DNA of 64,000 nt, from positions 120,034,001-120,098,000 of the forward strand of contig CM059431.1 in NCBI GenBank assembly GCA_030390025.1, written 5' to 3'. Within the stretch, counting starts at the first letter, position 1. Each line of letters starts with the position of its first letter. Origin of the DNA: Squalus acanthias. Lineage: Eukaryota. The position numbers and the translations under genes were made by a program. Under the pieces are notes generated by a model that saw nothing but the letters and a program-made list of their open reading frames with translations, was not told where the DNA came from and did no database searches. Positions 3,136 to 64,000 of the stretch are shown here, one piece after another.

Positions 3136-4290
3136 CGTGAGTGCACTAGTAGGTCTTCCTCTTGGAATAGAAGCATGACTGGGAGAATGAAAGAGGCCAT
3201 GCAGAGCAGGACAAGCTGCTAGAAGAGGGAGGAGGAGGAGGGGGAGAAGGGCTCTCAGCAGGAGACCATACCGTCCAAGGTGTTCAGGGTGCAATTGTCC
3301 TATCTGACCCTCACTCAGGAGGTCATCACTGAAATCTGCCCACTGCTGCAGCCACAACTAACAACCACAGAACAGGGCAAGGACTGCATTGCAAGTAGCT
3401 GTGACGGCGACCATGGCTATGAATTTTTATGGATCTGGTTCCTCCCAGGCTGGTGCTGGAAACATCTTGCAGTTTGCCATCCGCTGTTGCATAATGGAGG
3501 TCACTGAAGCTCTCTATTCAAAGAGAGCTAACTTCATTTCATTCCCTCTTGCCAGAGATAAGCAGGCAGAGCAAGCACGAAGATTTGCAAGGTTTGCAAG
3601 GTTTCCCCATGGTGCAGGGTGCAATTGATTGCGCGCACATTGCTTTGTGGGTGCCGCATGTCAACTCTGCCATGTACCGGAACTGAAAGGGTTTCCACTC
3701 TCTCAACATCCAGCTGGTGTGTGACCATAGGCCGCGCATCATGCAGGGCAATGCCCGATATCCTGGCAACAGTCATAATGCCTTCAATCCACGCAGTCCG
3801 CTGTGCCAGCTGTATTTCAGCCACCAATGGTGGCTACTGGGTGACAAGGGCTATCCACTGACGACATGGCTCATGACTCTGGTTCACAACCCACGTACAT
3901 GTGTGCAGCATGCATACAATGAGAGCCATGCTACCACAAGAAATGTAATATAGCAGACCATGGATGTGCTGACACAATGATTCATTCCGCTGCCTGGACC
4001 GCTCTGGAGGAGCCCTGCAGTACTCACTATTTGTAGTGGAATGCTTCATGCTGCACAACCTTGCCATCATGAGAGGATTGCCCTGCCACCACCTATCAGG
4101 TGAGAAGCTGAGGAGCAGGACGCGAGGAGGAGTGGAGGAGCAGAGGAGCAGAAGGAAGAGGAGGACGTGGAAGAGGAGGAAGAGAGGGAGGCAGAAGATG
4201 AGGAAGAGGAAGGGAGGCAGCAACCTAGACACTTACTTTCTGCCTGCGCAGTACATGAAGAACTCATTCAAGTACGATATCATTAACCTC
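3136..4290 (+). pseudogene. Harbinger (HARBI1-like) DDE transposase, disrupted
   Basis: Motifs across frames: GAIDCAHIAL, YPGNSHNAF, LLGDKGYPLTTWLMT, YNESHATTRNVI, CFMLHNLAI, then purine-rich acidic tail; stops and frameshifts. Confidence 0.85.
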
Positions 4291-5560: not shown

Positions 5561-6689
5561 TGTGAAGGAAAAGCCATATAACCTATTCAGAAAAATACAC
5601 TGTCTCATGAAAGAATTCTGGCCTTATTAAAACATGACAAACTGGGTTTGGAAATTTAGAAACCTAACTATGAAAAAGCTGTGAAAGCATTCTGGCTATT
5701 GAGATAAGGTAGTTGTTGACCCTGAATAAATAACCTTATTGAAACAGAAGGTTAACGGCTCTGGCAGGCTGACCTTTGGGAATGAAACAATGGTTCACCC
5801 TGGATAAGGTGTTCTAATTTACACTTTGTAAAGAACCACAAACATCTGCCTTCGTAAAAATGACACCAAGTAAAAAACATACCTGCCGTCACACCATTTT
5901 TTATGGTAAACTTAGAACACCTAGAAAGGAGACATAATTCTGCAATGCTACCAGCTGAGGTGACTGTAAGAATTGCAGGGGTTGGCAGAAAAATGACTAG
6001 AGATAATTAGCTTACATCTGCAGAAAACTTCAAAGGAAATACCACTGGAAAAGGGTTTAAATATTGAACTATCATATGGGATAGTAGACTCGCTTTAATC
6101 GGGCAGAGCAATTCTCGGCTTCAGAGGCGGCTCTGTAAGTCTCCAACTCTTTGTACCTTGGGGATCAAAGGTATTTAATTTTGGTGGATATCCTGTAGAA
6201 CTTTGAGAACTGTAAAACTGTAGCGAAGTTAAGATTTGAAAGTAAGGTTCTCTGATAATAAGATTGTAAACTTTCTCTTTTTGAAACTGTTAATGTTGCG
6301 ATTGACTCACCAACTGTAAACTGCATGTCGGTTCTTTAATAAATCTATATATTTTTAGAATTGTCTCACATAAGACTTCTGTATCAAACTCGCAAACTCA
6401 ATCTCTGTACACTCTTTGGTGAGGAGTTGCAGAATTCTGGGGGAGTATTCCAGACCCTCATAATATCCGGAACGTTACAGTCTAGCTAAACTTATTAAAT
6501 GTGCTATCTGGAGGATAGTAACATTTTCAGGTTGTTCCTTTCCTTTAGGAGAGATAGTCCAGACCTTTAGATGCAATTACGCGTCTTTAGGATTCAGCTA
6601 CTTCAAGCTTTAGTTGAAAGTGAATGTCTGAGGAATACGCCTGATCCGGGGTAGCCCTAAAGGGGCTAGGACTAGTAATTATCCCTTCA
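5561..6689 (+). mobile_element. Solo LTR, family B copy 1 (1129 bp), in intron 2 of the Harbinger Myb-like gene
   Basis: TGTGAAGG...CCTTCA termini, 4-bp TSD GTGA (5557-5560 and 6690-6693), AATAAA near 6338; homologous to 23388-26663 in the opposite orientation. Confidence 0.85.
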
Positions 6690-6859: not shown

Positions 6860-8481
6860 TGTAAGGGTTTGGACGTGTCTCTCAGAGACGGTGCTGGTGC
6901 GAGGTTAGGCCTTCGTTGCCTAATACTATTGCTTGCTCTGGTCTCCGGCCAGCCCTTTTGCAATAAGCACCTGTGAGTGATTCGACCCACTCACCCTTAT
7001 GGTTCTAACACTGGACTTAGGTGCAGGGAGCAGTAATGCAGAGAAAACTCAAATAGACCCGGTTGAATAGTACGAAATGGAAATCTTTATTGCATAGCGT
7101 CCAAAATCATGAAGTACATGTCATAGGCGCAAATTAACGAGAGTACAAGTATACATACATTCATAAAGCTTGGTCTATGGAAATGAAGAATGAACGGCAC
7201 ATCGTAAAAAGGGGAACACATTATACTTTAACCTTAATAAAACCACCCTCCCTTAACAATACCTACACTACGTCTAGATTTGTAGGATCGGGTAACATGC
7301 TCACCACTCGTGTTACTTCGGAGAATTTTAAAGTGAGGCACTCGGCTCGTTTCGCTGCAGCGCCTGACTGTCACGTGTTTGGAAGGGTCTCTGTACCCCA
7401 CTTGTTTATTTTCGCTGCTGCGACAAGCAGGCCAGACTCCCTGTTGTCATGAAGAACTCGACAGAACTCGGAAACGTTTGTAAAATTCAAAGAAGAGTCT
7501 TCCTGTGCTCGACACTGGTTGTCGGTAGACTTCAATGAAAAGTTCTTTATTTATATTTTCGGGCGCGGTCGGGGTTTACTGACCGTGGCGGCACGTGGAT
7601 TCTTCTCCTCTTCTTCTCGTCTCGTCTCGTCTCTTCGGGCCTCCGGGTCCAGACACCGTTTACCGACACTCGGGATGGTGCACCCTGTTACTTGCCCTTG
7701 TCGGGGCAGCTCGTTCCGATTGAGCTCCACCCAACATCCGAATAACCGACCAGTACGGCTAAAAGTCAAGAGTCAACAAAGTCCAGCCCTAAAGAAGAGC
7801 TTCAGCCAGCGATCGAGCGAGTCAAGGGAATAAGAGAGCGATGGACATTTGTTCACTATAGTTATAGTGATGTGTTCCCTTATCTCCCGCTCAAATCTTA
7901 ATGTTTGTCCTTTGTGTAATACTGGTGCACAAAACTCCCAGCATGGGGCGGTTGTCTTCTTTAACGGGTTTCGGTAGCACCTGAAACTGGCCAACTATCC
8001 GTTAATGTTTTCCCCATTGTTGACCCAGCCAGGATGTGTACGAATCGTCTCCCTGACTGGTTTTGGGGGCCCCCGAATACTTGCTTAATCACCCGTCAAT
8101 GTCTCTCTCATTGTAGAGCCGGGGGGGTATTTGTGTATTGATGTGTCTGGATGGGCCTTCGATTGCCCAGTACAATGGTCCTTACTTGTGCATGAAAATG
8201 ATTCCAGCACTTATATCTTTGCTATTGTTCCAAATGCAAACGGGTTGCATCCTGTCTTTATCAATGTTTACCGAGTATGATCCAATCTTATATTGAATGT
8301 TTATTCGACGCCATTTTGTCTGCCCACTGTGTCTCTGGAAGCTTCTGCCACGATGCTCAGCGGCCATTTTACAGGCTTCTGTGTCCTTTATTATCAGGAC
8401 AGCATTTTGTTTAATAAAACTGATCAAACGAATCTGTTTCTCTTATGTTATTTCGAATCGCGATAATTGCGAAACTTTACA
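6860..8481 (-). repeat. 3' LTR (1622 bp)
   Basis: Near-identical to 13902-15527; on - a TATAAATA near 7549-7556 and AATAAA at 7086-7091. Confidence 0.95.
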
Positions 8482-8493
8482 GTCCCTCCTGTT
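8482..8493 (-). promoter_or_regulatory. Polypurine tract
   Basis: Minus strand aacaggagggac immediately before the 3' LTR TGT. Confidence 0.65.
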
Positions 8494-8609: not shown

Positions 8610-10620
8610 TCATTTCCCAGAGAAAATTACATTGTCTAAACTTGGACAAACCGTAGGCATCATTGCCTTTAAACTTAAACTTACAATTCGCTGTTGTGCC
8701 ACTTGAACTTCAGCCCTGGGTTTAAAACAGAAACTGCTGTCACTCACCGGACACCGGCTGTGCTGTCCATGCTGGTAGTGTTGCACTGCAGTGGTGACGC
8801 AATACGTTCCACCCCCTATGTATGCCACCTGTGGGGGCACATGATCTTGTGTCATTGCTTCCATGGTGCAATTCATGGGCTTCGCGCCAGCCGTTCTGAA
8901 CCCGCATTGTGGTGTTAAAAAGGCATTCAAGTGCTGGGGACACAGTATGATGTGTGCTCCCCGGCCACGACAACCCGATAGGTCGGTACCTGTCATCGTT
9001 TGCTCCCAGCGGATGACGTAAGGTGGGACCGCTGCGTAGCGAATGTGGGCTCCCCCCTGAATGACACCAATGTTCTCCACCCGGTACACCGGGGCGGGCT
9101 TTGCTGTGTCGCCCAACACCGGCATCCATAGTACTATACCCATGATGGTATGATTTGACTGTCCGCAGTCCACTGGGACTGGGTATGCCTCTGAGGCTAG
9201 CCTGAGCTGGCACGGGCTTAATGCGTTCTGAAAAGGGTGGAGCGCCTGCAGGTGTTTGTTACTTATCCAGGACGGGACCAAACCTTGTTTTAAATCCTCC
9301 AAATTACTGCGGCCCTCGCCCAGTAACCACGCCCCGTATAGTACGCACACCTCGTTCTGCGCAGCTTGGTCGGATGCATTCCGATCTTCCCTGTTCAGGG
9401 CATTTACCGTTCTCGCGTGCTTCTCCAGCTCTGCTATAATCTCTTTTAAGTGTAGTGTCATGGCCTGGTGCTCATGTACTTCAGACCCTACAACCTTGTT
9501 TTCGCTTGTGAGGATGCTTTTTAACTGTGTTTTTAAACCGTTGATCTGGGTCTGCAGCTCCACATTGTCTAGAGCGTTGACCACAGACGTTCCCGTATTA
9601 AAAGCAGTGAACACATCGTTCACAACACCCCTTCTTTGTCTCCCCACCTGACCCAAAACTTTGTGTGGTGTGGTGTATAAGCTTGTTTTGTCAACCTCCG
9701 CAAAATCAAACTCATAAAATTGCCTGAACATGTTTGTTAACAGGACCTGGTACAATTGTTCCGTTTCTTTGGGACACCACTCTGGTAAACGCACCTCGGT
9801 GAGATTTAAAATCACCGAGGCCACCGCGTAATGTACCCCTTGATATAGTATCTGGTCCGTTGGCACCAGTACCAGACCATTCCCGGGCCCCTTAGTGGTT
9901 TTAGGGCACCCTTCCTCCTGAGCCAAAGCCACCGGAATCGTGGGTGGAGACTTGCGTGGGCGTGTGATGAGTTCAGTGGCGTTTACCGGGATCGGGGAGA
10001 AAGGAGCTCCGCACCCCCTGGTGCTGACATCCCACCTCATCCCTTTCCCGTCATCCTGCCACTGTCGTAGGAAAAAATATGGATATACCCTTGGGGCAAA
10101 CGTACTTCGATCCCCACATACAAACATATATTCCCTCATCCGGTTCCCACCATTTGTCCCAACAGACTTTCAATTGTCCGTTAGTCCCCGTAATTGTCCG
10201 ATGGGTATTGTTACCCAATCGCTCCCACTCAACCGAGGAATTTCTCATAGTCTTGCTTAACTTCCGTAACCACCACCATCGGCTCAATGGGACCTTCCCA
10301 TTGCATGTCAAACAAATCCTTTTGCCGACGGTGACGCTGATTCTGGGTGCAATGATCCTCACCCTGGGACACAGTAAAGAAGTCTCTTTGTAGGCAAATC
10401 CGGATGCGCTGGAGTAAACCGTTGAATTCGTTCCCAGCCATCCCGGCTACCTTCCCTTGTGGAAATAAGTGGCGGTTTCCTCAGCCTCTCGCTCCCCGGT
10501 CCCATCCGTTGCGATAGGGGCCGTGTCCCCGGAGCAACCGAACACAACGACATCCTTGGTGAGGCCCCGATAGGCCAATCCATATCCGATCGTTGCGAGC
10601 ACTATCAGAATCCTTTCCAT
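8610..10620 (-). pseudogene. env: env-like gene: signal peptide + Ig-like domain + F-type class I fusion glycoprotein; one stop, one frameshift, no TM anchor
   Basis: ATG at 10620 reads MERILIVLATIGYGLA; in-frame TAG at 10447-10449; CLTC...W...DEGIYVC; +1 shift (possibly the A6 run at 10072-10077) into ORF 8610..10139 with furin-like RQRR (9630-9641), heptad region and Cys-rich domain. Confidence 0.8.
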
Positions 10621-10891: not shown

Positions 10892-12097
10892 CTAAATTCT
10901 GCGAAGGCTGCCACGAGCTTTTCCCAGTGGCGGGGGGGCACTGACCCCTTCCTTTGATCTACCGCAGCCTGTCGCTGCTGCGCTGGGACTGGGATCTCCC
11001 TGGGCTGCCTTGAACTTACGCCTGGGGGTGTACGGGGGATTTGACCACGACTTCCTGGGCTGGGGTGTCCGACTTGACCTTCGGAGGGCTACCTTGGGCA
11101 AGATCTCCAGGGCCGACGGACCGGGAACCGAGACTACCACCGTCACGGCCTGTGGTCCCACCACAGCCGCCGGCTCCGTCTCCCCTGGCTCCGCCCCCCT
11201 GGGCTCGGGATTTGCGGTTTCCGACTCCACCCTACTTGTATGTGGAACTCCACTCGCAATCCCTATCTCCCCTGTGGGCAAGATTTCCAGGGCCGACGGA
11301 CCGGGAACCGAGACTTCCACCGTCACGGCCTGTGGTCCCACCACAGCCGCCGGCTCCGTCTCCCCTGGCTCCGCCCCCCTGGGCTCGGGATCTGCAGTTT
11401 CCGATTCCACCCTGTGTGGAACTCCACTCGCAATCCCTGTCTCCCCTATGCTTGGGTCGAGGGCGAAACCTTCGTCCTCCGACCCCACCACCTCTCCGAC
11501 CGGGTCACTACCTTGATCAAGCTCTCCGAGCTCTTCCTCATCTGAATCCCAACCCCAAGAAAAGATCCTACACTTTTCCAAAATGTCTTCTCCCCTCACG
11601 CAGGCTGCTTTACCGGCCTGTGTGCCCTGCGGTTCTACCCGGGGCTGAGAGTCCCCACTCGCAGGTTTGGCCCCTCCCCTAAGACAGGCCACCGCCCCTG
11701 CTTGTGCATTCTGTGTAATCTCGCCTGCTGGAGGCTGCAGATTTCTATTCTGTTTTAGTTTGGGCAACTCTGCTACCATGGCTTGCAACTGCGGGGTGGT
11801 GAATTCCCCCGGGGTTGTTGAGCAAACCATCCCTCTGGCTTTGGATAGGGCTTGGGTCAGACCTTTTATCCTTTCCTCACAGGGCCCATGGTTTAAAACC
11901 TCATACTCCCTGCTCCTGGCTACCCTGTAGGCTGCCTTTATGTCTCTAAGCTGCCCTTCTAGCCCATCTATTTTCCCCATTAAGCGGGCGTTCTCCTCCC
12001 GCAAGGCATGCTCTTTTAACCTGGCCTCCTTACAGGAGACCCCCTCCTGTGCGTGTCTTTCAAGGGGACACAGGTAGGCAGGCTGCACCGGTTCCAG
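10892..12097 (-). CDS. ORF2: in frame after the gag TGA; divergent Gag-like coiled coil + Pro/Glu-rich duplicated segment + basic tail
   Basis: Open for ~400 codons; TGA CTG GAA CCG GTG continues the gag frame; similar to the Gag N-terminal half; no PR, RT, RH or IN motifs. Confidence 0.65.
   Translation of the reverse strand: MEPVQPAYLCPLERHAQEGVSCKEARLKEHALREENARLMGKIDGLEGQLRDIKAAYRVARSREYEVLNHGPCEERIKGLTQALSKARGMVCSTTPGEFTTPQLQAMVAELPKLKQNRNLQPPAGEITQNAQAGAVACLRGGAKPASGDSQPRVEPQGTQAGKAACVRGEDILEKCRIFSWGWDSDEEELGELDQGSDPVGEVVGSEDEGFALDPSIGETGIASGVPHRVESETADPEPRGAEPGETEPAAVVGPQAVTVEVSVPGPSALEILPTGEIGIASGVPHTSRVESETANPEPRGAEPGETEPAAVVGPQAVTVVVSVPGPSALEILPKVALRRSSRTPQPRKSWSNPPYTPRRKFKAAQGDPSPSAAATGCGRSKEGVSAPPPLGKARGSLRRI
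11095..11447. repeat. ~180-bp in-frame tandem duplication inside ORF2
   Basis: tgggcaagatYtccagggccgacgg begins at 11095 and 11275; peptide GIASGVPH...PSALEILP occurs twice. Confidence 0.9.
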
Positions 12098-13897
12098 TCA
12101 GAAGTCTGGGTTGTATGGGGCTGTTGCTACCTCCCCGTGCAAAATCATAAGAGACCGCATGGCTCCTAACATTGATTCTATCGCATCGGGATGGATAGGC
12201 ACACCAGCTCCTTTCTCAGAGACAGGCGCTTGGGTTCGGACTGCGGGAGCTTTGTCCCTGGAGTCCTTCCAGGGATTCCTGCAGTTTTTACGCCAGTGAC
12301 CTGTCTTCCCGCACCCGTAACAAACACCACTGGTTTGTGGGGCGCGATTTCCCTCCTGATGCCACTCTTTCTGAGCCGGAGCTGCGGGCTTTGCCTCATG
12401 CACCTTTCCCTTAAGGGGACGCGCTCCCGTGCTCCTAGTGTTCCGATACCCTATGGTGAGTCGATTTAGGACAGACTCCTCCGTTGTGGCGGGGTTAGTG
12501 GGATCAAACCACGCTCTGGCCTGCTCCCTGACGTCTAGCAAGCTGTTGGCTACCATGCACCTGAGCCAATGAGCTTTCCCGGCGCCGTCCAGATAGGTGC
12601 GCGCTGGCGCACCTGGGCAGCTACGCTGGTATACTGGCCACAGTCTGTCGGCGAAAACCTTCGGGGGTTCTCCCTCCATCTGTATGGTTTGACTCAATCT
12701 GACGAACGGACCTTCGTCATCCGCCCCTAACACTTCTAGGACCTCGTCCCGTAACTCCTCATAGGTTTTATTTCCCTTCTTGCTCTCATCGGAGAGACAC
12801 TGAAGGATCGAGCTATCTAAAGAGAACAGCAATATTTTGGTCTTTTCCTCATCGTCGCAGCCATTAATTGCTGCGGTCTGTTCTACTTCCCTAAAATGTA
12901 CGGAAGGGTCATCTGATTCGGACAGCTTCCGTACATGGCTAATCATTGCTCTCAGCTGGTGTGAGCTGTGGGGCAATACAAGTTGGTTCAGGACATCCCC
13001 GTCTTCCCCATTGGCTGCATTCGGGCCTCTCTTGTGACCTCGGAGCGGACACATCGGTCCCGGTCTCGACTCTACCTCCGGGGATTGTCCTACCTCGGGA
13101 ACCTCCTTCTCTATTTCCACCACTTCCTCCCTTACCCAGGTTGCCGAATAGCTGGGTGGCGCGGAGGGCACAGTGGCAAATACGTCATCTGCTTTGTCTG
13201 GTAGGGATTTTGGGAATTCCCTACCCACCTGTGGCTGGCTCGCTGATGGGCTGATGAGACACACCAAGCCGTTTGCCTTATTCAGGGCCTCTTTTAGGTT
13301 CCCTATCTCCTTCTGGCAAACACTGTGGTCGGCTCCCTCATGCCTATCCTCGAGGGCCATCTTGTATGCAGCCCTAACTCCCTTCAAGCTTTCTTCCTGG
13401 GCTTTTATCTGGTTTGCTAGGTGGGCGCACCGTTCTCTAATCCTTCCCTCGTTTAATTTTGCTTCCGTGACCTGACATTCTAGGTAATCAGTTTTAGCCT
13501 CATGGTGGTTGGCTACTATTTGGCGTTCCTGATGTAATGCATTCAATGATGCAATGAGTTTTTTTCCTCCCGTGACCTTTTCCTCCATCTCTACCTCCAG
13601 TTCCCTGATCTGAGCTGCCTGTGCCACAATGACCTGGTCCGAAAGTTGGACTTGCTTCTTGTAGCACATCAGCCAGACTGCTTTCTCCACCGACTTCTTA
13701 TGCTCTTTACTGCCTGTCCATTTGATGGCAGCGTCTAGCGGACGCTTATCCATCAGTAGGTCACTTATCCACCTTTTGGTTAAGTTAACCTTCCCAAACA
13801 CATAGTCGGCTACCCTCTCATCCATCACATTTCGCCTATTCAAACCAGGGTCTAAAACATAACTCTCCCGCTGCCAATGTCCTGCCGCGGTCGCCAT
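12098..13897 (-). CDS. gag: Gag polyprotein, 599 aa, intact
   Basis: Coiled-coil N half; PSAPPSY late domain (13148-13168); capsid MHR-like QMEGEPPKVFADRL; CX2CX4HX4C knuckle CYGCGKTGHWRKNC (~12281-12322). Confidence 0.9.
   Translation of the reverse strand: MATAAGHWQRESYVLDPGLNRRNVMDERVADYVFGKVNLTKRWISDLLMDKRPLDAAIKWTGSKEHKKSVEKAVWLMCYKKQVQLSDQVIVAQAAQIRELEVEMEEKVTGGKKLIASLNALHQERQIVANHHEAKTDYLECQVTEAKLNEGRIRERCAHLANQIKAQEESLKGVRAAYKMALEDRHEGADHSVCQKEIGNLKEALNKANGLVCLISPSASQPQVGREFPKSLPDKADDVFATVPSAPPSYSATWVREEVVEIEKEVPEVGQSPEVESRPGPMCPLRGHKRGPNAANGEDGDVLNQLVLPHSSHQLRAMISHVRKLSESDDPSVHFREVEQTAAINGCDDEEKTKILLFSLDSSILQCLSDESKKGNKTYEELRDEVLEVLGADDEGPFVRLSQTIQMEGEPPKVFADRLWPVYQRSCPGAPARTYLDGAGKAHWLRCMVANSLLDVREQARAWFDPTNPATTEESVLNRLTIGYRNTRSTGARPLKGKVHEAKPAAPAQKEWHQEGNRAPQTSGVCYGCGKTGHWRKNCRNPWKDSRDKAPAVRTQAPVSEKGAGVPIHPDAIESMLGAMRSLMILHGEVATAPYNPDF
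13879..13896 (-). promoter_or_regulatory. Primer binding site, tRNA-Arg (probably TCG)
   Basis: TGGCGACCGCGGCAGGAC is complementary to GTCCTGCCGCGGTCG-CCA, the vertebrate tRNA-Arg(TCG) 3' end as recalled; 5 nt downstream of the 5' LTR. Confidence 0.8.
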
Positions 13898-13901
13898 TTT
13901 C

Positions 13902-15527
13902 TGTAAGGGTTTTGGACGTGTCTCTCAGAGACGGTGCTGGTGCGAGGTTAGGCCTTCGTTGCCTAATACTATTGCTTGCTCTGGTCTCCGGCCAGCCCTT
14001 TTGCAATAAGCACCTGTGAGTGGTTCGACCCACTCGCCCTTACGGTTCTAACACTGGACTTAGGTGCAGGGAGCAGTAATGCAGAGAAAACTCAAATAGA
14101 CCCGGTTGAATAGTACGAAATGGAAATCTTTATTGCATAGCGTCCAAAATCATGAAGTACATGTCATAGGCGCAAATTAACGAGAGTACAAGTATACATA
14201 CATTCATAAAGCTTGGTCTATGGAAATGAAGAATGCACGGCACATCGTAAAAAGGGGAACACATTATACTTTAACCTTAATAAAACCACCCTCCCTTAAC
14301 AATACCTACACTACGTCTAGATTTGTAGGATCGGGTAACATGCTCACCACTCGTGTTACTTCGGAGAATTTTAAAGTGAGGCACTCGGCTCGTTTCGCTG
14401 CAGCGCCTGACTGTCACGTGTTTGGAAGGGTCTCTGTACCCCACTTGTTTATTTTCGCTGCTGCGACAAGCAGGCCAGACTCCCTGTTGTCATGAAGAAC
14501 TCGACAGAACTCGGAAACGTTTGTAAAATTCAAAGAAGAGTCTTCCTGCGCTCGATACCGGTTGTCGGTAGACTTCAATGAAAAGTTCTTTATTTATATT
14601 TTCGGGCGCGGTCGGGGTTTACTGACCGTGGCGGCACGTGGATTCTTCTCCTTTTCTTCTCATCTCGTCTCGTCTCTTCGGGCCTCCAGGTCCAGACACC
14701 GTTTACCGACACTCGGGATGGTGCACCCTGTTACTTGCCCTTGTCGGGGCGGCTCGTTCCGATTGAGCTCCACCCAACATCCGAATAACCGACCAGTACG
14801 GCTAAAAGTCAAGAGTCAACAAAGTCCAGCCCTAAAGAAGAGCTTCAGCCAGCGATCGAGTGAGTCAAGGGAATAAGTTAGCGATGGACATTTGTTCACT
14901 ATAGTTATAGTGATGTGTTCCCTTATCTCCCACTCAAATCTTAATGTTTGTCCTTTGTGTAATACTGGTGCACAAAACTCCCAGCATGGGGCGGTTGTCT
15001 TCTTTAACGGGTTTCGGTAGCACCTGAAACTGGCCAACTATCCGTTAATGTTTTCCCCATTGTTGACCCAGCCAGGATGTGTACGAATCGTCTCCCTGAC
15101 TGGTTTTGGGGGCCCCCAAATACTTGCTTAATCACCCGTCAATGTCTCTCTCATTGTAGAGCCGGGGGGGTATTTGTGTATTGATGTGTCTGGATGGGCC
15201 TTCGATTGCCCAGTACAATGGTCCTTACTTGTGCATGGAAAACGATTCCAGCACTTATATCTTTGCTATTGTTCCAAATGCAAACGGGTTGCATCCTGTC
15301 TTTATCAATGTTTACCGAGTATGATCCAATCTTATACTGAATGTTTATTCAACGCCATTTTGTCTGCCCACTGTGTCTCTCTGGAAGCTTCTGCCACGAT
15401 GCTCGGCGGCCATTTTACAGGCTTCTGTGTCCTTTATTATCAGGACAGCATTTCGTTTAATAAAACTGATCAAACGAATCTGTTTCTCTTATGTTATTTC
15501 GAATCGCGATAATTACGAAACTTTACA
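13902..15527 (-). repeat. 5' LTR (1626 bp)
   Basis: Direct repeat of 6860-8481, followed on - by the PBS. Confidence 0.95.
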
Positions 15528-16135
15528 GCAATGACCCTTCCAATAATGGCCAGCACCATTTCCTGCATGGGCGTTAGAAAATGCAGGCGTGCCTCTCCCC
15601 CTCTGGTTAGTTCCTTTCGCCATTGGTTGTGTGCCACCTTCTCCTGCAAGAGAGAGGGAAGTGTGTAAGTGAGTGTCATGCAATATGTTTGGGTGATGTG
15701 GCTGCCATGATTGAATAGCTGGCAGTGTGTGTAAGCTGTGAGATTTGAGTGTGAGACTTGCAGCAGTGCTAAGTGTGTCAGGGTGAGGTGAAGCATATGT
15801 ATGTTAGGTATGAGTCCTGCTTGATAGAGATTGCTGCTAGTTGAGTGATGGAGTTGTGGTGGTCTGAGCAGTGGCTGAGGCTAATGTTGCAGTTGTTAGG
15901 ATATGGCATTTGAAGATGTATTCACTGACCTTGACCAATCGTGTGAGGTTAAACATCTTGCGGCACTGCATCCAGATCCTTGGAACTAGACACCTGGCTA
16001 TCTGCTCCCACTGCTTTTTCACTGTGTATCTGGAGGGCCTCCTGGCCCCCTGTGGATACAGGACATCGCTCCTCCTTTCCCCACCTCCATCAAGACCTCC
16101 AGCTTTGGAAAACTTTGGTGCCTGCTTTCTCCCAT
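15528..16135 (-). pseudogene. Exons 1-2 of Harbinger Myb/SANT-like gene; exon 2 split by the provirus and resuming at 6859-6812
   Basis: KKQWEQIA...RIWMQCRKMFNLTR then GT donor at 15929; acceptor ttgcag at 15644, EKVAHNQ...LAIIGRVIA, continuing EAVACGRAETIKE beyond the TSD. Confidence 0.75.
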
Positions 16136-18960: not shown

Positions 18961-20149
18961 TTAACTAAATCTGGTCATAAATCGGGCAGCAATGTGATCG
19001 TGTACTAGTGGCATTTGGACCGCCGGCTCTGCCAGGTCTTCCTCATCCTCATGCTGCTCCTCCTCCTGCTCCAAAGAGGCTATGCGGTCTGCACCTTGCT
19101 CCTCATGCAGCGCTAATCCTCGCTGCAGCGCTATGTTGTGCAGGGTGCAGCAGACCAAGACAATTCTGGAGACCCTGGCTGCTGCGTACTGCAGGGCTCC
19201 TCCAGATCTGTCCAGGCATCTGAAGTGCATTTTGAGCAACCCTATTGTCTGCTCTATGACACTTCTAATGTAGATGTGGCTTTGATTGTAATGTTTCTCA
19301 GCCTCGTTTGTTGTTCTTCTCAAAGGTGTCATGAGCCACGTCTTCAGGGGATAGCCCTTGTCTCCAGGCAGACAGCCGGAAAGACTGTTTGGAGGTGCGC
19401 AGAGCTGAGGGACGGTGGACTGGCACAGGATGTAAGATTCATGGCAGCTGCCAGGGAACCTGACGTACACATGAATGATGATCTTCCTATGGTTGCAGAC
19501 GAGCTGCACCTTGAGGGAGTGGAAGCTCTTGTGGATGACAAAGACTGCTGGGTTCTGATGGGGTGCCCTGATGGCCACATATGTGCAGTCAGTGACACCC
19601 TGCACCCGTGGGAAGCCAGCCAGAGCTGCAAAGCCGAGCGCACACTCAGCAACACTGGCTTCATCAGTGGCAAAGTTGATATAATTGGCGGACTTTTCAA
19701 AGAGGACATCGGTGACCTGTGGGCAGTCGACTGCGAGATGCCACAAATGTCTGCTGCAGATGCCTGGAAGGAGCCTGAGGCAAAGAAGTTGAGGGCACGG
19801 ATGACTTTGACAGCTACTGGTAAGGGGTGTCCACCTGTTCATCTGGGCTGCAGGTCTTGCTCCAGCAATCTGCGATGACCTGGCGCGATAGCCTGAGCCT
19901 CCTGAAGCACCGCTTCTCACTCATGTTGAGGAAGCTCATCCTCTGCCTGTAAACCCTGTGCTGGGGGCATTGCCTCTGGCGTGGTCCAGCCCTGCACTGA
20001 TGCCCTCTGCCCTGTGCAGCATCAGGTGGTTGAGGAGAAGGTTGGCGGTCTTGTTGTTGGTGCTGCTGGTGTGCCTGATTCTGCTGGTGTTGCGGCTGAT
20101 CATGGTCAGATTCTGAGGACCAAGGTGAGAGAGTACAAACCGTACCCAT
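18961..20149 (-). pseudogene. Harbinger (HARBI1-like) transposase, catalytic region open, N-terminus frameshifted
   Basis: [63 protein letters not shown]. Confidence 0.9.
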
Positions 20150-27681: not shown

Positions 27682-30490
27682 TCAGTATCCTGTACCTGCC
27701 TTCTCCCCATATCCCTTGATACCTTTATCTTTAAGAAATATATCTAACTCATTCGTCAATATATTTAATGACTTGGCCTCAACTACCTTCTGTGGTAGAG
27801 AATTCCACAGGTTCACCACTCTCTGGGTGAAGAAATTCTTGCTCATTTCTATCCTAAATGGCTTACCCCTTATCCTTAGATTATGACCCCTGGTTCTGGG
27901 CTCTCCGACCATCGAGAACATTCTTCCTGCATCTAGTTTGTCCAGACCTGTCAGAATTTTATATGTTTCGATGAGATCCCCTCTCATTCTTCTATACTCC
28001 AGCGAGTATAAGACCAATCGAAACAATATCTCCTCATATGTCATTCCTGCCATCCCAGGTATCAGCCTTATGAATCTTCGCTGAACTCCTTCCATGGCAA
28101 GAACATCCTTCCTCAGATAAGGCGACCAAAACTGCACACAGTACTCAAGGTGTGGTCTCACCAAGACCCTGTACAACTGCAGCAGGACATCCCTGTTCCT
28201 ATACTCAAACCCTTTCGCTATGAAGGCCAACATACCATTTGCCTTCTTCACCGCCTGCTGCACCTGCATGCTTACCTTCAGCGACTGGTGCACAAGGACA
28301 CCCAGGTCTCGTTGCACCTCCCCTTCTCCCAATCTATTGCCAGTCAGATAATAGTCTGCCTTCCTGTTTTTGACACCAAAGTGGATAACCTCGCATTTAT
28401 CCACATTATATTGCATCTGCCACGCTTCTGCCCACTCACCCAACCTGTCCAAATCATCCTGGAGTTTCTCGGTATCCTCCTCGCAGCACACACGCCCACC
28501 CAGCTTTGTGTCATCTGCAAACTTGGAGATATTACATTTAGTTCCCTTATCTAGATCATTAATGTATATTGTGAATAGCTGGGGTCCAAGGACCGATCCC
28601 TGCGGTACCCCACTAGTCACTGCCTGCCACTCGGAAAAAGACCCATTAATTCCTACTCTCTGCTTTCTGTCCGCCAACCAGTTCTCAACCCAAGTCAATA
28701 CCTTGCCCCAATCCCATGTGCCTTAACTTTACACGCTAATCTCTTATGTGGGACCTTATCGAAAGCCTTTTGAAAATCCAAATACACCACATCTACTGGT
28801 TCTCCCTTATCTATTTTCCCAGTTACATCCTCAAAAAATTGCAGTAGATTAGTCAAGCACGATTTACCTTTTGAAAATCCATGTTGACTTTGTCCGATCC
28901 TGTCACTGTTTTTCAAGTGCTCAGCTATTACATCCTTTATAATGGACTCTAGCATTTTCCCCACTACCGATGTCAGGCTTACTGGTCTGTAATTCCCCGC
29001 TTTCTTTCTACCACCCTTTTTGAATAGTGGGGTAACATTAGCTACCCTCCAATCCATGGGTACAGTTCCAGATTCCATCGAATGTTGGAAGGTGATCAGC
29101 AATGCATCTACTATTTCTAGGGCCACTTCCTTAAGTACCCTAGGATGTAGATTATCAGGCCCTGGGGATTTATCGGCCTACAATCCCGTCAATTTCCCTA
29201 ACACCATTTCCCTGCAAATACTGATTTCTTTCAGTTCCTCCCTTTCATCAGACCCTATGTTCTCCAACATCTCTGGGAGGTTATTTGTGTCCTCCTTTGT
29301 GAAGACAGAACCAAAATATGCATTTAATTGGTCTGCCATTTCTTTGTTCCCCATTATAACTTCCCCCGCTTCTGACTGCAAGGGACCTACACTTGATTTC
29401 ACTAATCTTTTTCTCTTCACATATCTATAAAAGCTCTTACAGTCAGTTTTATGTTCCCTGCAAGCTTACTTTCATATTCTATTTTCCCCTTCTTAATTAA
29501 TCCCTTTGTCCTCCTTTGTTGAATCCTAAACTGCTCCCAATCCGCAGGGCTACCACTTTTTCTGGCCAATTTATATGCCCTCTCCTTGGATCTTATGCTA
29601 TCGCTAATTTCCCTTGTTAGCCACGGTTGAGTCACCCTTTTTGTTTTATTCTTATGCCACACTGGGATGAACAAATACTGTAGTTCATCCATGCAGTCTT
29701 TGAATGTTTGCCATTGACTATCCACCGTCAACCCTTTGAGTGACATTCCCCAATCAATCCTACCCAATTCGCGCCTCATACCATCGTAGTTTCCTTTATT
29801 TAAATTCAGGACCCTAGTCTCTGATTCAACTACTTCACTCTCGATCTTAATGAAGAATTCTATCATATTATGATCACTCTAACCCAAGGGACCTCGTACA
29901 ACAAGATTGCTAATTAATCCTTTCTCGTTACATAATACCCAGTCTAAGATGGCCTGATATCTGGTTGGTTCCTCGACATATTGTTCCAGAAAACCATCCC
30001 GTAAACATTCTAGGAATTCCTCCTCCACAGTATTTTTACTAATTTGGTTAGTCCAATCTATATGTAAATTAAAGTCACCCATGATGACTGCTGTGCCCTT
30101 ACTGCATGCTTCTCTAATTTCCCTTTTAATGCCATCCCCAACCTCCGTATTACTGTTTGGAGGTCTATATACCACTCCCACTAACGTTTTCTCCCCCTTG
30201 TTATTTCTCAGTTCTACCCATACAGATTCCGCATCATCAGAGCTAATATCCTTCCTTTCAATTGTGTTAATCCCCTCTTTAACCAGCAATGCTACCCCAC
30301 CTCCCTTTCTTTTTTGCCTATCTTTCCTAAATATTGAATACCCCTGGATGTTGAGTTCCCAGCCTTGGCCACCCTGGAGCCATGTTTCTGTAATCCCAAT
30401 CAAATCATATTCATTTACCTCTATTTGCGCAGCTAATTCATCCACCTTGTTCCGAATGCTCCTTGCATTAAGACACAAAGCCTTCAGGCT
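27682..30490 (-). pseudogene. CR1 ORF2 (APE endonuclease + RT), fragmented
   Basis: CLNARSI, GITETWL, VYRPP, MGDFN (29879..30478); RT in 28695..29126 and 27682..28698 with FADD. Confidence 0.95.
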
Positions 30491-30663
30491 TGTTTTTTTT
30501 AACGCTCTCAGACCTATATGAATTATTATTTACTGTGACCATGTTTGATTTAAACCGTTGAGTTCTTTGCCTTCTACTTTTGTTTTTCTCCTTCCTGTCT
30601 TTTGCTTTTATCCTTGTTTCCCTTTCCTCTGTCTCCCTGCTCTGTTCCCAACCCCCTTCCACT

Positions 30664-60978: not shown

Positions 60979-60992
60979 TGGTGACCCCGACG
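60979..60992 (+). promoter_or_regulatory. Primer binding site, tRNA-Trp
   Basis: TGGTGACCCCGACG is complementary to the tRNA-Trp 3' end CGTCGGGGTCACCA. Confidence 0.85.
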
Positions 60993-61017
60993 CTCAGAAC
61001 GTATTCCGAGCACTGCA

Positions 61018-64000
61018 ATGGCAGACACGAACGCAGTTTCCGTGAAACTGCCGGAGTTTTGGGAAAACCAGCCCGAAGCCTGGTTCCTCCAAGTCGAGTC
61101 CCGGTTCTGGCTGCGACACATCACCACAGATGGGACGAAGTACGACTACCTCGTCACATCACTCGGTAGCTGCACAGTTACGAAGGTCTGGACAGCGCTG
61201 CAGAACCCACCAGAGGAGGGCAAGTATGCACATCTTAAGGCCGCGCTCCTTAAAAAATTTACGGCCTCGGCATACCAGCGAAACTGCCACCTCCTCGACC
61301 TTCCAGGCCTCGGGGATGCCTCACCGTCAGACCTCCTCGCCCACATGCTCTCCCTCACCGACGAGAGCCCACCCGGATCCCTCTTCCGCACGCTGTTCAT
61401 CCGCCAGCTACCTCTCAGCATCCACCCAGCGATCATGGCGTCCGGCCTCACGGACCTGGAAGCCCTGGCCGATGAGGCCGACAAGCTGCTGTCCGCTCAC
61501 TCCAGCCGCGACGTCACTCCGGACCTGGCAGCCACTGCCTGGGCGCGCCCTTCACTGGCCACCACGCGGCCACAAGGCCCAGCCACCGGGCTCACGGGGC
61601 CTTCGCACCCCACTAACCCGGGCCACTGTTACTATCACGCACGGTTCGGCGCCAGGGCACAACGGTGCATACCTCCCTGCTCTTTCAAGTCCGCCCCCGT
61701 ACCAGCCCCCGCGATGGCCGTGGGCCAAGTGGGCTCCCTGCTGTACGTCACGGAGGACAAAACCGGCCGCCGGTTCCTGTGCGACACTGGAGCTCAGCAC
61801 AGCATCATCCCAGCCTCCTCCCTCGACATCCGAAAGGGCAAACGAGGACTGGCGATGGCTGCTGCTAACGGCTCGGACATCCGGACGTACGGCACCCGCA
61901 CAATCACCCTCAACCTCGCTGGTCGCCGCTACCGATGGGAGTTCATCACTGCCAAGGTGCTCTCCCCTCTCATCGGCGCAGATTTCCCGTGTGCCCACGG
62001 CCTACTGGTAGACATCCCTCGACACTGCCTCGTGGACATGAACACCATGTCCCCCATCCTGGGCGCCATGGCCCCCCGTCAACCCGCCGACATGGCGTCA
62101 CAGTGCCACGCCCGGGCCACGGATGACTACTCGGCACTCCTGGCCGAATTCCCGGCCCTTACCAATCCTACCTTCTCCGCGGAGGCCGCCAAACACGGGA
62201 TGGAACACTTCATCCCCACCACAGGCCCCCTAGTGTACGCCCACGCCCGCAGGCTGGACCCGGCCAAACTGGAGATCGCGTGGACCGAGTTTGCCACCAT
62301 GGAACAGCTCAGCATCATCCGCCGCTCCAACAGTCCCTGGGCCTCCCCACTCCACATCGCCCCCAAACCAGGCGGGGGTTGGCACTCCTGCGAGGATTAT
62401 CGCAGCCTCAACGACGCCACCACCCCTGATCGGTACCCCATGCCACACATCCAGGACTTCTCGGCTAGACTGGCCGGCCGTTCAGTCTTTTCCAAGGTCG
62501 ACCTGGTGCGCGGCTACCACCAAGTCCCCGTCCACCCCGCAGACGTCCCCAAGACGGCCGTAATCACCCCCTTCGGCCTTTTCGAGTTCCTGCGGATGCC
62601 CTTCAGCCTCAAAAACGCAGCCCAGGCATTCCAACGGCTCATGGACTCGGTCCTTCGGGACCTGAAGTTCCTGTTCGTCTACCTGGACGACATCCTGGTA
62701 GCCAGTTCCTCCAAGCAGGAACACCTCGAACACCTTCGCATCCTGTTCGGGCGCCTCAGCGACCACGGGCTCATCCTCAGCCCAGCTAAATGCCAGTTCG
62801 GCCTGGACAAGATCGACTTCCTCGGCCACCACATCACCCATGCTGGGGCCATTCCCCTGCCCACCAAGGTGCAGGCCATCCAACAATTTCCCCGCCCCAC
62901 CACCATCAAAGGCCTCCAGGAGTTCCTCGGATGGTGAATTTCTATAACTGCTTCATCCCCAAAGCGGCGTCCCTCATGAGGCCCCTGTATGAAGCCCTCC
63001 GGGGCAGGAGCGGCAAGATGGCGGTCGAATGGACGGCAGACGCGTCCGCCGCCTTCGACTCCACCAAGACCGCGCTTGCCAACGCCACCCTGCTCGCGCA
63101 CCCACGGCCCAATGCCAGGGTAGCGCTCACCACGGACGCCTCCGACCACGCGGTCTGCGCCGTGTATGAGCAGTGGGTCGACGGCGCCTGGCAACCACTT
63201 GCCTTCTTCAGCCGCCAACTACACCCCCCGGAGGTCAAGTACAGCACCTTCGACCGCGAGCTCCTCGCGCTGTTCCTGGCGGTCCGCCATTTTCGGTTTT
63301 TGCTGGAGGGCCACCCCTTCACTGCGTTTGTCGACCACAAACCCCTGACGTTCGCAATGGCAAAGACAACCGACCCCTGGTCCGCCAGGCAGCAGTGCCA
63401 GCTCGCGGCAGTGTCCGAGTTCATCACGGACATCCAACACGTCTCCGGCCGAGACAATGTGGTAGCCGACTGCCTCTCCCACCCCGCCATCCACGCCGCA
63501 CACCTGGCAGTCGACTACGCTCAACTCGCAGCAGACCAGATCACCGACCCTGATCTGCTCTCCGCACCTACTAACCTACCAGGGCTACGCCTGGCCGACG
63601 TCGCCTGTGACCCAACCGCAGTCACGGTCAAGTGCGACATATCCCTATGTCAACCTCGGCCCGTCGTCCCAGCGTCCTGGCGCCGCCGGGTATTCGAGAT
63701 TCTCCACAACCTCTCCCACCCTGGCGCCCGCGCATCCATCAAATTGGTAGCCAACCGCTTTGTCTGGTGCGGCCTTCGCAAGGATGTGCGTACTTGGGCC
63801 AACTCCTGCCTAGCCTGCCAACGGGCCAAGGTGCAGCAACACATGAGAGCACCCCTCGAGTAATTTACCGTCCCTTCGCGTATATTCGACCACATCCACG
63901 TGGACATCGTCGGGCCCCTGCCGCCGTCGCAAGGCCACACGCACTTGCTGACGATCGTTGACCGCACCACGCGCTGGCCCGAGGCAATTCCACTGACCTC
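61018..64000 (+). pseudogene. Gag-Pol polyprotein with a frameshift at ~62930 and a stop at 63861-63863
   Basis: KLPEFW gag; CYYH...C...C; FLCDTGA protease; YLDD RT; TDAS RNase H; H..SH...CLAC integrase zinc motif; HVDIVGP. Confidence 0.92.

Follow-up and report, generated by a model that had tools for sequence, protein, structure and literature searches.

The region considered here, positions 10051 to 10620, lies on the minus strand inside a long terminal repeat (LTR) element of Squalus acanthias. It forms part of a 64,000-nucleotide stretch of DNA (assembly GCA_030390025.1, contig CM059431.1, positions 120,034,001 to 120,098,000 of the forward strand), which we call the window and whose first letter is position 1 in all coordinates below. 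According to an initial annotation, this region is the hidden N-terminus of a retroviral envelope gene (env), encoding a signal peptide and an immunoglobulin (Ig)-like domain ahead of a 509-amino-acid (aa) open reading frame (ORF; 10139..8610) that resembles F-type viral fusion proteins. Our analysis indicates that the region is the damaged 5' end of env in a defective member of a young, high-copy family of endogenous retroviruses (ERVs), and that the intact Env of this family probably carries an Ig-like head, proposed to bind a receptor, on an F-type fusogen. The env features of the window copy are given here from the start codon onwards. Sisters are 29 copies from the same genome that were compared together with the window's own locus.

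10573-10620, minus strand: env start codon (ATG at 10620-10618) and signal-peptide-like segment MERILIVLATIGYGLA
10360-10572, minus strand: conserved segment preceding the Ig-like one, residues 17-87, with the pattern GCSG...RWPGWLG-NST-YSS...C (alignment A1, described below)
10447-10449, minus strand: in-frame TAG at Env residue 58, private to the window copy
10078-10359, minus strand: Ig-like segment, residues 88-181, with CLTC as putative B strand, RWWW as C strand and D-x-G-x-Y-x-C as F strand; its matches are borderline and all belong to the immunoglobulin superfamily (IgSF)
10072-10077, minus strand: six-base homopolymer run at which the reading frame of the window copy shifts
9642-10071, minus strand: linker and F2-like part, with the F-aligned part of the structural model beginning near 9887
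9630-9641, minus strand: polybasic site, RQRR here and RRRR in the query sister, after which comes the fusion-peptide-like GVVNDVFTAFNTGTSVVNAL
8685-9629, minus strand: F1-like part, comprising the fusion peptide, a long heptad-repeat helix and beta-rich head domains, to residue 645
8681-8683, minus strand: junction of a deletion of about 610 bp
8610-8680, minus strand: out-of-context tail with which the truncated 509-aa ORF ends, including its stop codon; the sequence after ...AQQRIV is unlike that of the sisters

There is only a single stop among the 190 codons of the minus-strand frame that runs from 10620 to 10051, whereas about nine would be expected by chance (3/64 per codon). The ATG, the TAG, the segments MERILIVLATIGYGLA and ISVTVGKRICLTC, and the motifs RWWW, QLKVCW and DEGIYVC are all present on the minus strand where the initial annotation had placed them. 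The upstream frame and the 509-aa ORF overlap in different frames and meet at the homopolymer run, which is also where the annotation had proposed to join them. A DNA search with the env region over the 3.7-Gb genome returned 5376 first-look candidates, and all 40 of those that were scored match at 95-100%. Both the stop and the frame shift are absent from every one of the 29 sisters, in which the TAG site is a sense codon and the run leaves the frame unshifted. The initial annotation had named lesions common to the sister copies as one ground for its refutation, and on this point the result is clearly in its favour. The env ATG is kept in 27 of the 29 sisters, and in 12 of the 29 (one of which has no ATG) a single uninterrupted frame of 783 codons extends to a common stop, with the remaining 17 broken elsewhere and at differing places. 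Because all sisters are free of the two lesions and 12 of them carry the open 783-codon frame, the upstream frame and the F-like ORF constitute one gene, and the upstream frame is the true N-terminus of that gene. It might be argued from the window copy alone, which has a stop and a frame shift between the two frames, that the two are unconnected, the upstream frame being a small ORF of its own or a non-coding leader and the 509-aa ORF the whole of env. However, this reading is refuted by the sisters, and its probability is effectively nil; in addition, the upstream region is conserved at the protein level in other species, and a signal peptide is missing from the 509-aa ORF on its own.

A third lesion lies at the far end of the gene. 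The stretch of about 610 bp that is missing at 8681-8683 is present in 25 of the 29 sisters, three others have a larger gap, and one locus is too short to tell. This loss sets in behind residue 645; with it go the second heptad repeat and the membrane anchor, and also the tail and the natural stop. The length of about 670 aa that had been estimated for the whole protein is therefore too short, since the window copy lacks these 610 bp and the intact protein has 783 aa. With a stop, a frame shift and this deletion in its env, the window copy cannot make the protein.

The 783-aa product of one open sister, P0002, was used as a query, and the translated pieces of the window copy are identical to its first residues at 179 of 183 positions. 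P0002 has a hydrophobic N-terminus (in the signal-peptide-like segment, the most hydrophobic N-terminal 12-mer begins at residue 4), nine N-glycosylation sequons, and an RRRR sequence at residues 327-330 that is followed by GVVNDVFTAFNTGTSVVNAL. Long helices are located within residues 332-444 (at 332-376 and 383-444) and a further helix at 679-711, and there is a hydrophobic anchor at about 734-756 (the most hydrophobic 19-mers fall at 732-756). The second heptad repeat and the C-terminal anchor are thus present in sisters and deleted in the window copy. The intact Env is a class I fusion glycoprotein. Its predicted layout would begin with a signal peptide at residues 1-16, an extension of about 225 residues, an F2-like part, the cleavage site at 327-330 and the fusion peptide; these would be followed by the long heptad repeat and an F-type beta-rich head, then the second heptad repeat and finally the anchor. 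Within the extension, a conserved segment with cysteines would precede an IgSF V/I-like domain at approximately residues 88-215.

The F-type character of the core rests on predicted structure. An AlphaFold model of the full-length protein, built with 36 relatives, is confident for residues 240-310 and 400-650 (predicted local distance difference test, pLDDT, 80-93) and poor elsewhere. When this model was compared with the PDB by Foldseek, all 50 matches listed were paramyxovirus or pneumovirus F proteins, with a best E value of 2.8e-11. VIA-align placed the F protein of Langya virus at Z 11.5 (328 residues aligned, root-mean-square deviation [rmsd] 6.6 A) and found 73 of 998 chains at Z >= 8, including the foamy virus Env 8rm0_A (Z 8.7, 274 residues aligned). 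Another foamy virus Env, 8ozh_A, is matched by the family profile at the level of sequence (E 0.0021). Sequence identity between the Env core and F is only 6-15%, and no Pfam fusion-protein family is recognized: PF00523 (Fusion_gly) has no match at E <= 10 with the window ORF or the 783-aa sister, and none at E <= 1 in 10 relatives. The modelled core is nevertheless of the paramyxovirus and pneumovirus F fold, with the topology of domains I, II and III. The structural matches start at model residues 243-245, which correspond to F residues 26-38, where mature F begins. With mature F beginning opposite model residue ~245, everything from residue 17 to about 240 is an added module that is absent from F.

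An exhaustive phmmer search of 1.84 billion representative sequences found 46 relatives of Env. Those that are named come from the sharks Chiloscyllium, Mustelus, Heterodontus, Rhincodon and Pristiophorus, from the skate Rhinoraja, and from the frogs Pelodytes and Mantella (16 cluster members). Identity across the extension is 37-74% in the six alignment rows that span it (P0003, P0005, P0007, P0011, P0019 and P0027), or 44-74% when the partly aligned P0027 is set aside, and P0016 and P0038 contain only its first part. The cysteines and Trp-rich motifs of the extension are conserved among relatives, and C29, G63, N65, S66, S70, S71 and Y77 are invariant in the nine sequences of alignment A1. 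More distant Env relatives are only 17-27% identical in the core, and they carry N-termini of 140-180 residues with the same layout. Several public gene models from a sawshark and a skate (P0004, P0005 and P0016) join host exons, which include Niban-like sequence, C2H2 zinc fingers and a repeat, to fragments of Env, and these chimeras are probably annotation artefacts of ERV insertions. A PDB search with the A1 profile was dominated by the zinc-finger columns of the chimeric P0005 and was uninformative.

The 12 open copies of the host genome also give a view of constraint. The ratio of nonsynonymous to synonymous change (dN/dS, as a ratio of means) is 0.37 for residues 1-225, 0.53 for residues 88-182, 0.17 for residues 226-329 and 0.22 for the F1 part at residues 330-783, values whose weight is lessened because the 66 pairs are non-independent and only copies with an open frame were taken. 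The direction is nonetheless clear, in that the family diversified while the whole of env, with its extension, was under constraint at the protein level.

Since an N-terminal domain of this kind is also found in relatives from sharks, a skate and frogs, it is an old part of the Env family and not a recent capture. The domain had been described as captured in the initial annotation, but no donor can be named: there is no host IgSF protein among the 46 relatives, and hhalign comparison of the Ig-like segment with 14 host antigen-receptor V exons gave alignments in register with a probability of only about 1% and P values of 0.05-0.065. Any capture from a host would have to date from early in the history of the Env family, and would have left a donor that can no longer be recognised.

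The case for an Ig-like fold begins with the signature residues of P0002, which are C106, W116-118 and D161-x-G163-x-Y165-x-C167 and which are conserved in close homologues. Ig_3 is the sole Pfam match of both the window piece (E 0.021) and a 95-residue segment (E 0.017), and it is found in three of five family members with a best E value of 0.0019, although the scores of 16-17 bits fall short of the cut-off of 30. A profile of residues 88-182 gave 10 PDB matches at E <= 10, eight of which are IgSF proteins, and the best of these is the V domain of CRTAM (E 0.019), aligned over the whole domain. Single-sequence phmmer searching of the PDB placed three antibody light-chain variable (VL) chains at the top, each at E ~1. 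Similar matches are obtained with more distant members of the family. The N-terminus of P0037 matches V-set (E 0.0018, 18.9 bits against a cut-off of 26) and I-set (E 0.044), and all 28 PDB matches of the frog P0020 segment are antibody heavy-chain variable (VH) domains, with a best E value of 0.0028. The shark protein P0013 bears the UniRef name 'Ig-like domain-containing protein'. A MAFFT alignment of close and distant Ig-like segments (A4) misplaced the F-strand cysteine of the frog sequences and was left out of the searches.

Structure comparison of the low-confidence model of residues 89-214 points in the same direction. VIA-wide, run against 48,161 chains, gave the Fc-mu receptor as its best match (Z 7.0, with 91 of 101 residues at an rmsd of 3.0 A); next come catshark CD8 alpha, NITR-11, TREM-1, and V domains of antibodies and T-cell receptors, and nearly all of the 50 chains listed are V-type Ig domains. 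All 50 Foldseek matches listed for the same residues are antibody-containing entries, the best at E 2.8e-3 and none as low as 0.001. Ig families also dominate the ESM Atlas features with scores of 0.86-0.88, which are below 0.9 and constitute a lead only. Each line of support is borderline, and together they are concordant across four divergent subfamilies, such that residues ~88-215 probably adopt an Ig V/I-like fold.

A function for this module can be proposed from the general organization of such viruses. Retroviruses have one envelope protein and no separate attachment protein, and the paramyxovirus F core alone has no attachment function, which is supplied instead by a separate HN, H or G protein. 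Because the Env described here is a single protein whose F core would have no attachment function of its own, receptor binding is the most likely role of the extension, and we infer that this role is on balance the correct one. Perhaps the N-terminal Ig-like module forms the receptor-binding head of the surface subunit, in which the predicted cleavage at the basic site would keep the extension, and engagement of a receptor would then cause the transmembrane subunit to undergo F-type refolding. The initial annotation had also offered an immune-decoy function, which is unsupported, and receptor binding is the simpler inference.

Several observations weigh against the interpretation of the extension as an Ig-like receptor-binding head. 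There is no Ig match above a curated or conventional threshold in any of the searches, with Pfam scores of 12-19 bits against cut-offs of 26-30 and PDB E values of 0.002-1. AlphaFold modelling of residues 1-230 from a nine-row alignment reached a mean pLDDT of only 39.5, and in the full-length model the pLDDT is below 50 at residues 1-98, 117-130, 134-139 and 156-234. Because these values are low, the Ig structure matches rest on a model that is rated unreliable. Moreover, the VIA Z score of 7.0 is in the range that the tool calls 'middling', and no chain reaches Z 8. Two non-Ig Pfam families score slightly above Ig_3 and Ig_2 with P0013, and the N-terminus of P0048 has no Pfam match. Alignments of the extension between subfamilies by hhalign are marginal (P 0.013, 0.022, 0.015, 0.095 and 0.38), and one relative, P0041 (584 aa), has no extension. 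Finally, F-type proteins have their N-terminus in domain II, close to where the head has its base, according to the main text of PMC11468914, and an appendage at this terminus therefore need not sit at the apex. The signature named in the initial annotation lies in a segment for which V/I-type IgSF domains are the best matches in both sequence and structure, and the Ig fold itself is predicted with low confidence.

These shortcomings invite the reading that the extension is beta-rich and has a fold other than that of Ig, with the residue pattern arising by coincidence and the weak Ig matches reflecting the abundance of antibody chains. Such a reading gains from the absence of any individually significant Ig match, the poor AlphaFold confidence, the negative comparison with host V exons and the slight lead of two non-Ig families with P0013. 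Nevertheless, IgSF domains are the best or the sole class of match in each of the four divergent subfamilies, and VIA-wide, which uses one chain per 40% cluster and so lessens the antibody excess, still returned V-type domains almost exclusively. The Cys-Trp-Cys spacing of C106, W116-118 and C167 is also the canonical one for V/I-set domains, and we consider a different fold unlikely. Another possibility accepts the Ig-like module but has it imitate a host surface protein, so as to modulate immunity or block superinfection, instead of serving as the receptor-binding head. Viral IgSF domains that act as decoys do exist, and a poxvirus soluble interferon receptor cluster is present among the ESM features with a score of 0.87, which is again a lead only. 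However, the module is joined covalently to a fusogen with a membrane anchor and lies upstream of the cleavage site, and hence it remains with the particle as its surface subunit. Among the 46 relatives there is no host protein that resembles it, and an Env that has no other candidate receptor-binding part needs one. Mimicry is therefore improbable, slightly more so than a different fold, and the Ig-like receptor-binding head is the interpretation that we retain.

The element that carries this env is also informative about the family. Its other features in the window are the following.

13902-15528, minus strand: 5' LTR of the provirus, paired with 6860-8482
12098-13924, minus strand: gag-like open frame, 608 codons from stop to stop, with an ATG at 13897, a coiled-coil region and one CCHC zinc knuckle
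11675-12142, minus strand: stretch at the place of the ~3.7-kb pol of full-length sisters; the window copy has no pol
10892-12097, minus strand: ORF2 of 401 codons, which shares the gag frame and is separated from gag by one stop
6860-8482, minus strand: 3' LTR, preceded by the purine run AGGAGGGA at 8483-8490

The two LTRs, aligned over 1627 columns, are 98.4% identical with 22 mismatches and 4 gap positions. The zinc knuckle of the gag-like frame matches zf-CCHC at E 0.0025, which is below the curated cut-off. The match between full-length sisters and the element stops at position 3387 and resumes at 3854, and between these points the sisters carry a frame for protease (PR), reverse transcriptase (RT), tether, RNase H and integrase (IN). 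In the window copy and several sisters, this pol of about 3.7 kb is replaced by some 470 bp. There are two full-length sisters in which gag is followed by a 1024-codon frame (protease, RT, tether, RNase H and integrase) and then by env. In one of them (L031:4970-9895), gag has 617 codons and the 1024-codon PR-RT-RNase H-IN frame is in the same frame, with one stop codon between the two. This arrangement of gag, stop and pol in one frame is the layout of read-through gag-pol expression in gammaretroviruses and epsilonretroviruses. Among solved structures, the pol of the family is closest to the RT of murine leukaemia virus and xenotropic murine leukaemia virus-related virus (E 5e-70), followed by foamy virus PR-RT (E ~1e-63) and the integrase of prototype foamy virus (E 6e-17). 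The window copy is thus a dead member, without pol and without an anchor, of a young and numerous family.

In its N-terminal part, ORF2 is paralogous to the coiled coil of gag, with 38% identity over 73 aa (E 5e-13). Within ORF2, positions 11092-11447 contain a tandem duplication of about 180 bp, whose copies are 93-96% identical and which yields two copies of the segment ...EIGIASGVPH..RVESETA.PEPRGAEPGETEPAAVVGPQAVTV.VSVPGPSALEILP... in the protein. A similar coiled-coil piece is joined to the env N-terminus in P0038, a gene model from another species. The family may therefore regularly have an ORF like ORF2 upstream of env. The main text of the lokiretrovirus paper (PMC7947760) describes an extra 'smc' gene in some genomes, and no match to the SMC family was found in a Pfam search of the window frames.

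Other repeats are present elsewhere in the window. There is a 319-codon open frame at 18961-19920 (minus strand) with a DDE_Tnp_4 transposase domain of the Harbinger/PIF type (E 2.6e-30). A second retroelement, at 60985-63863 (plus strand), encodes DUF7041 and RVT_1 (E 1.7e-29) and then RT_RNaseH_2 and Integrase_H2C2, and extends toward the end of the window. On the minus strand, the intervals 1243-2514, 27682-28722 and 29879-30529 hold fragments of RVT_1 and an endonuclease frame (Exo_endo_phos), which suggests that they are remains of non-LTR retrotransposons of the long interspersed nuclear element (LINE) type. Lastly, positions 6131-6689 and 23944-23388 form an inverted match with 79% identity.

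The host family may have been infectious until recently, because it has many open env frames under purifying selection and because the LTRs of the window copy are only 1.6% apart. In a wider context, F-type fusion proteins were long assigned to negative-strand RNA viruses and have since been found in lokiretroviruses and foamy viruses, and the present observations extend F-like retroviral Envs to cartilaginous fishes. It is an evenly poised proposal that an old lineage of vertebrate retroviruses, represented in sharks, a skate and frogs, placed a V-type IgSF domain at the N-terminus of an F-type fusogen. Were this correct, the arrangement would be a third answer to the attachment problem of F-like fusogens, beside the separate attachment protein of paramyxoviruses and the internal receptor-binding domain (RBD) of foamy viruses. 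The way in which an F-type fusogen acquires receptor specificity in a virus with a single Env is known only for foamy viruses, and an N-terminal Ig-like head would represent a second, independent design. The many open copies in one genome would then make a tractable natural system for the coupling of receptor binding to the triggering of F-type fusion.

Although F-like retroviral Envs are already known, an IgSF-type N-terminal head on one of them was not found in print. Specifically, an Ig-type module at the N-terminus of a retroviral Env, F-like or other, was not found described in the main texts searched, including those of PMC7947760, PMC13524379, PMC11468914 and PMC13709493. The Env of lokiretroviruses is F-like and shows sequence similarity to PF00523 with an E value of 2.2e-7 (Wang and Han, Mol Biol Evol 2020; PMC7947760, main text). 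As described there, it has in common with the Squalus Env an F-like class I fusion protein with a signal peptide, a basic cleavage site, a fusion peptide, a coiled coil and an anchor, and both reside in gag-pol-env proviruses with LTRs that have relatives in amphibians. It differs in that the Squalus Env matches F by fold only, and the sequence link to PF00523 was not reproduced. In RT phylogeny, lokiretroviruses form a clade that is sister to the other retroviruses. The terms for an immunoglobulin domain and for cartilaginous fish have no occurrences in the main text of that paper.

The F proteins of paramyxoviruses and pneumoviruses have in common with the Squalus Env the fold of the ectodomain from the start of mature F2 to the second heptad repeat, as well as a polybasic site followed by a fusion peptide, and they are without the N-terminal extension of about 225 residues. 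The extension, in turn, has the signature residues and the domain length of IgSF V/I-set domains such as those of CRTAM, IgLON, DIP, the Fc-mu receptor and CD8 alpha. Unlike these cell-surface proteins, it has no significant sequence relationship to any of them, it contains the additional cysteines C103, C153 and C175 and a Trp-rich E-F loop (WDKWW), and it is fused to a viral fusogen.

Foamy virus Env also combines an F-type core with an added receptor-binding domain. Its core has domains I-III in common with F, a leader peptide is located at its start, and its RBD (residues 217-543) adopts a distinct fold and is an insertion in the surface subunit behind the HRC helix (PMC11468914, Sci Adv 2024, main text). 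The Squalus Env matches it both by sequence (8ozh_A) and by fold (8rm0_A), and the pol of the family likewise scores well against the foamy virus PR-RT and integrase given above. Compared with foamy virus Env as described in that text, however, the added module of the Squalus Env is N-terminal, lying wholly upstream of the residue near 245 at which F starts, and it is preceded by a plain signal peptide and has an Ig-like appearance.

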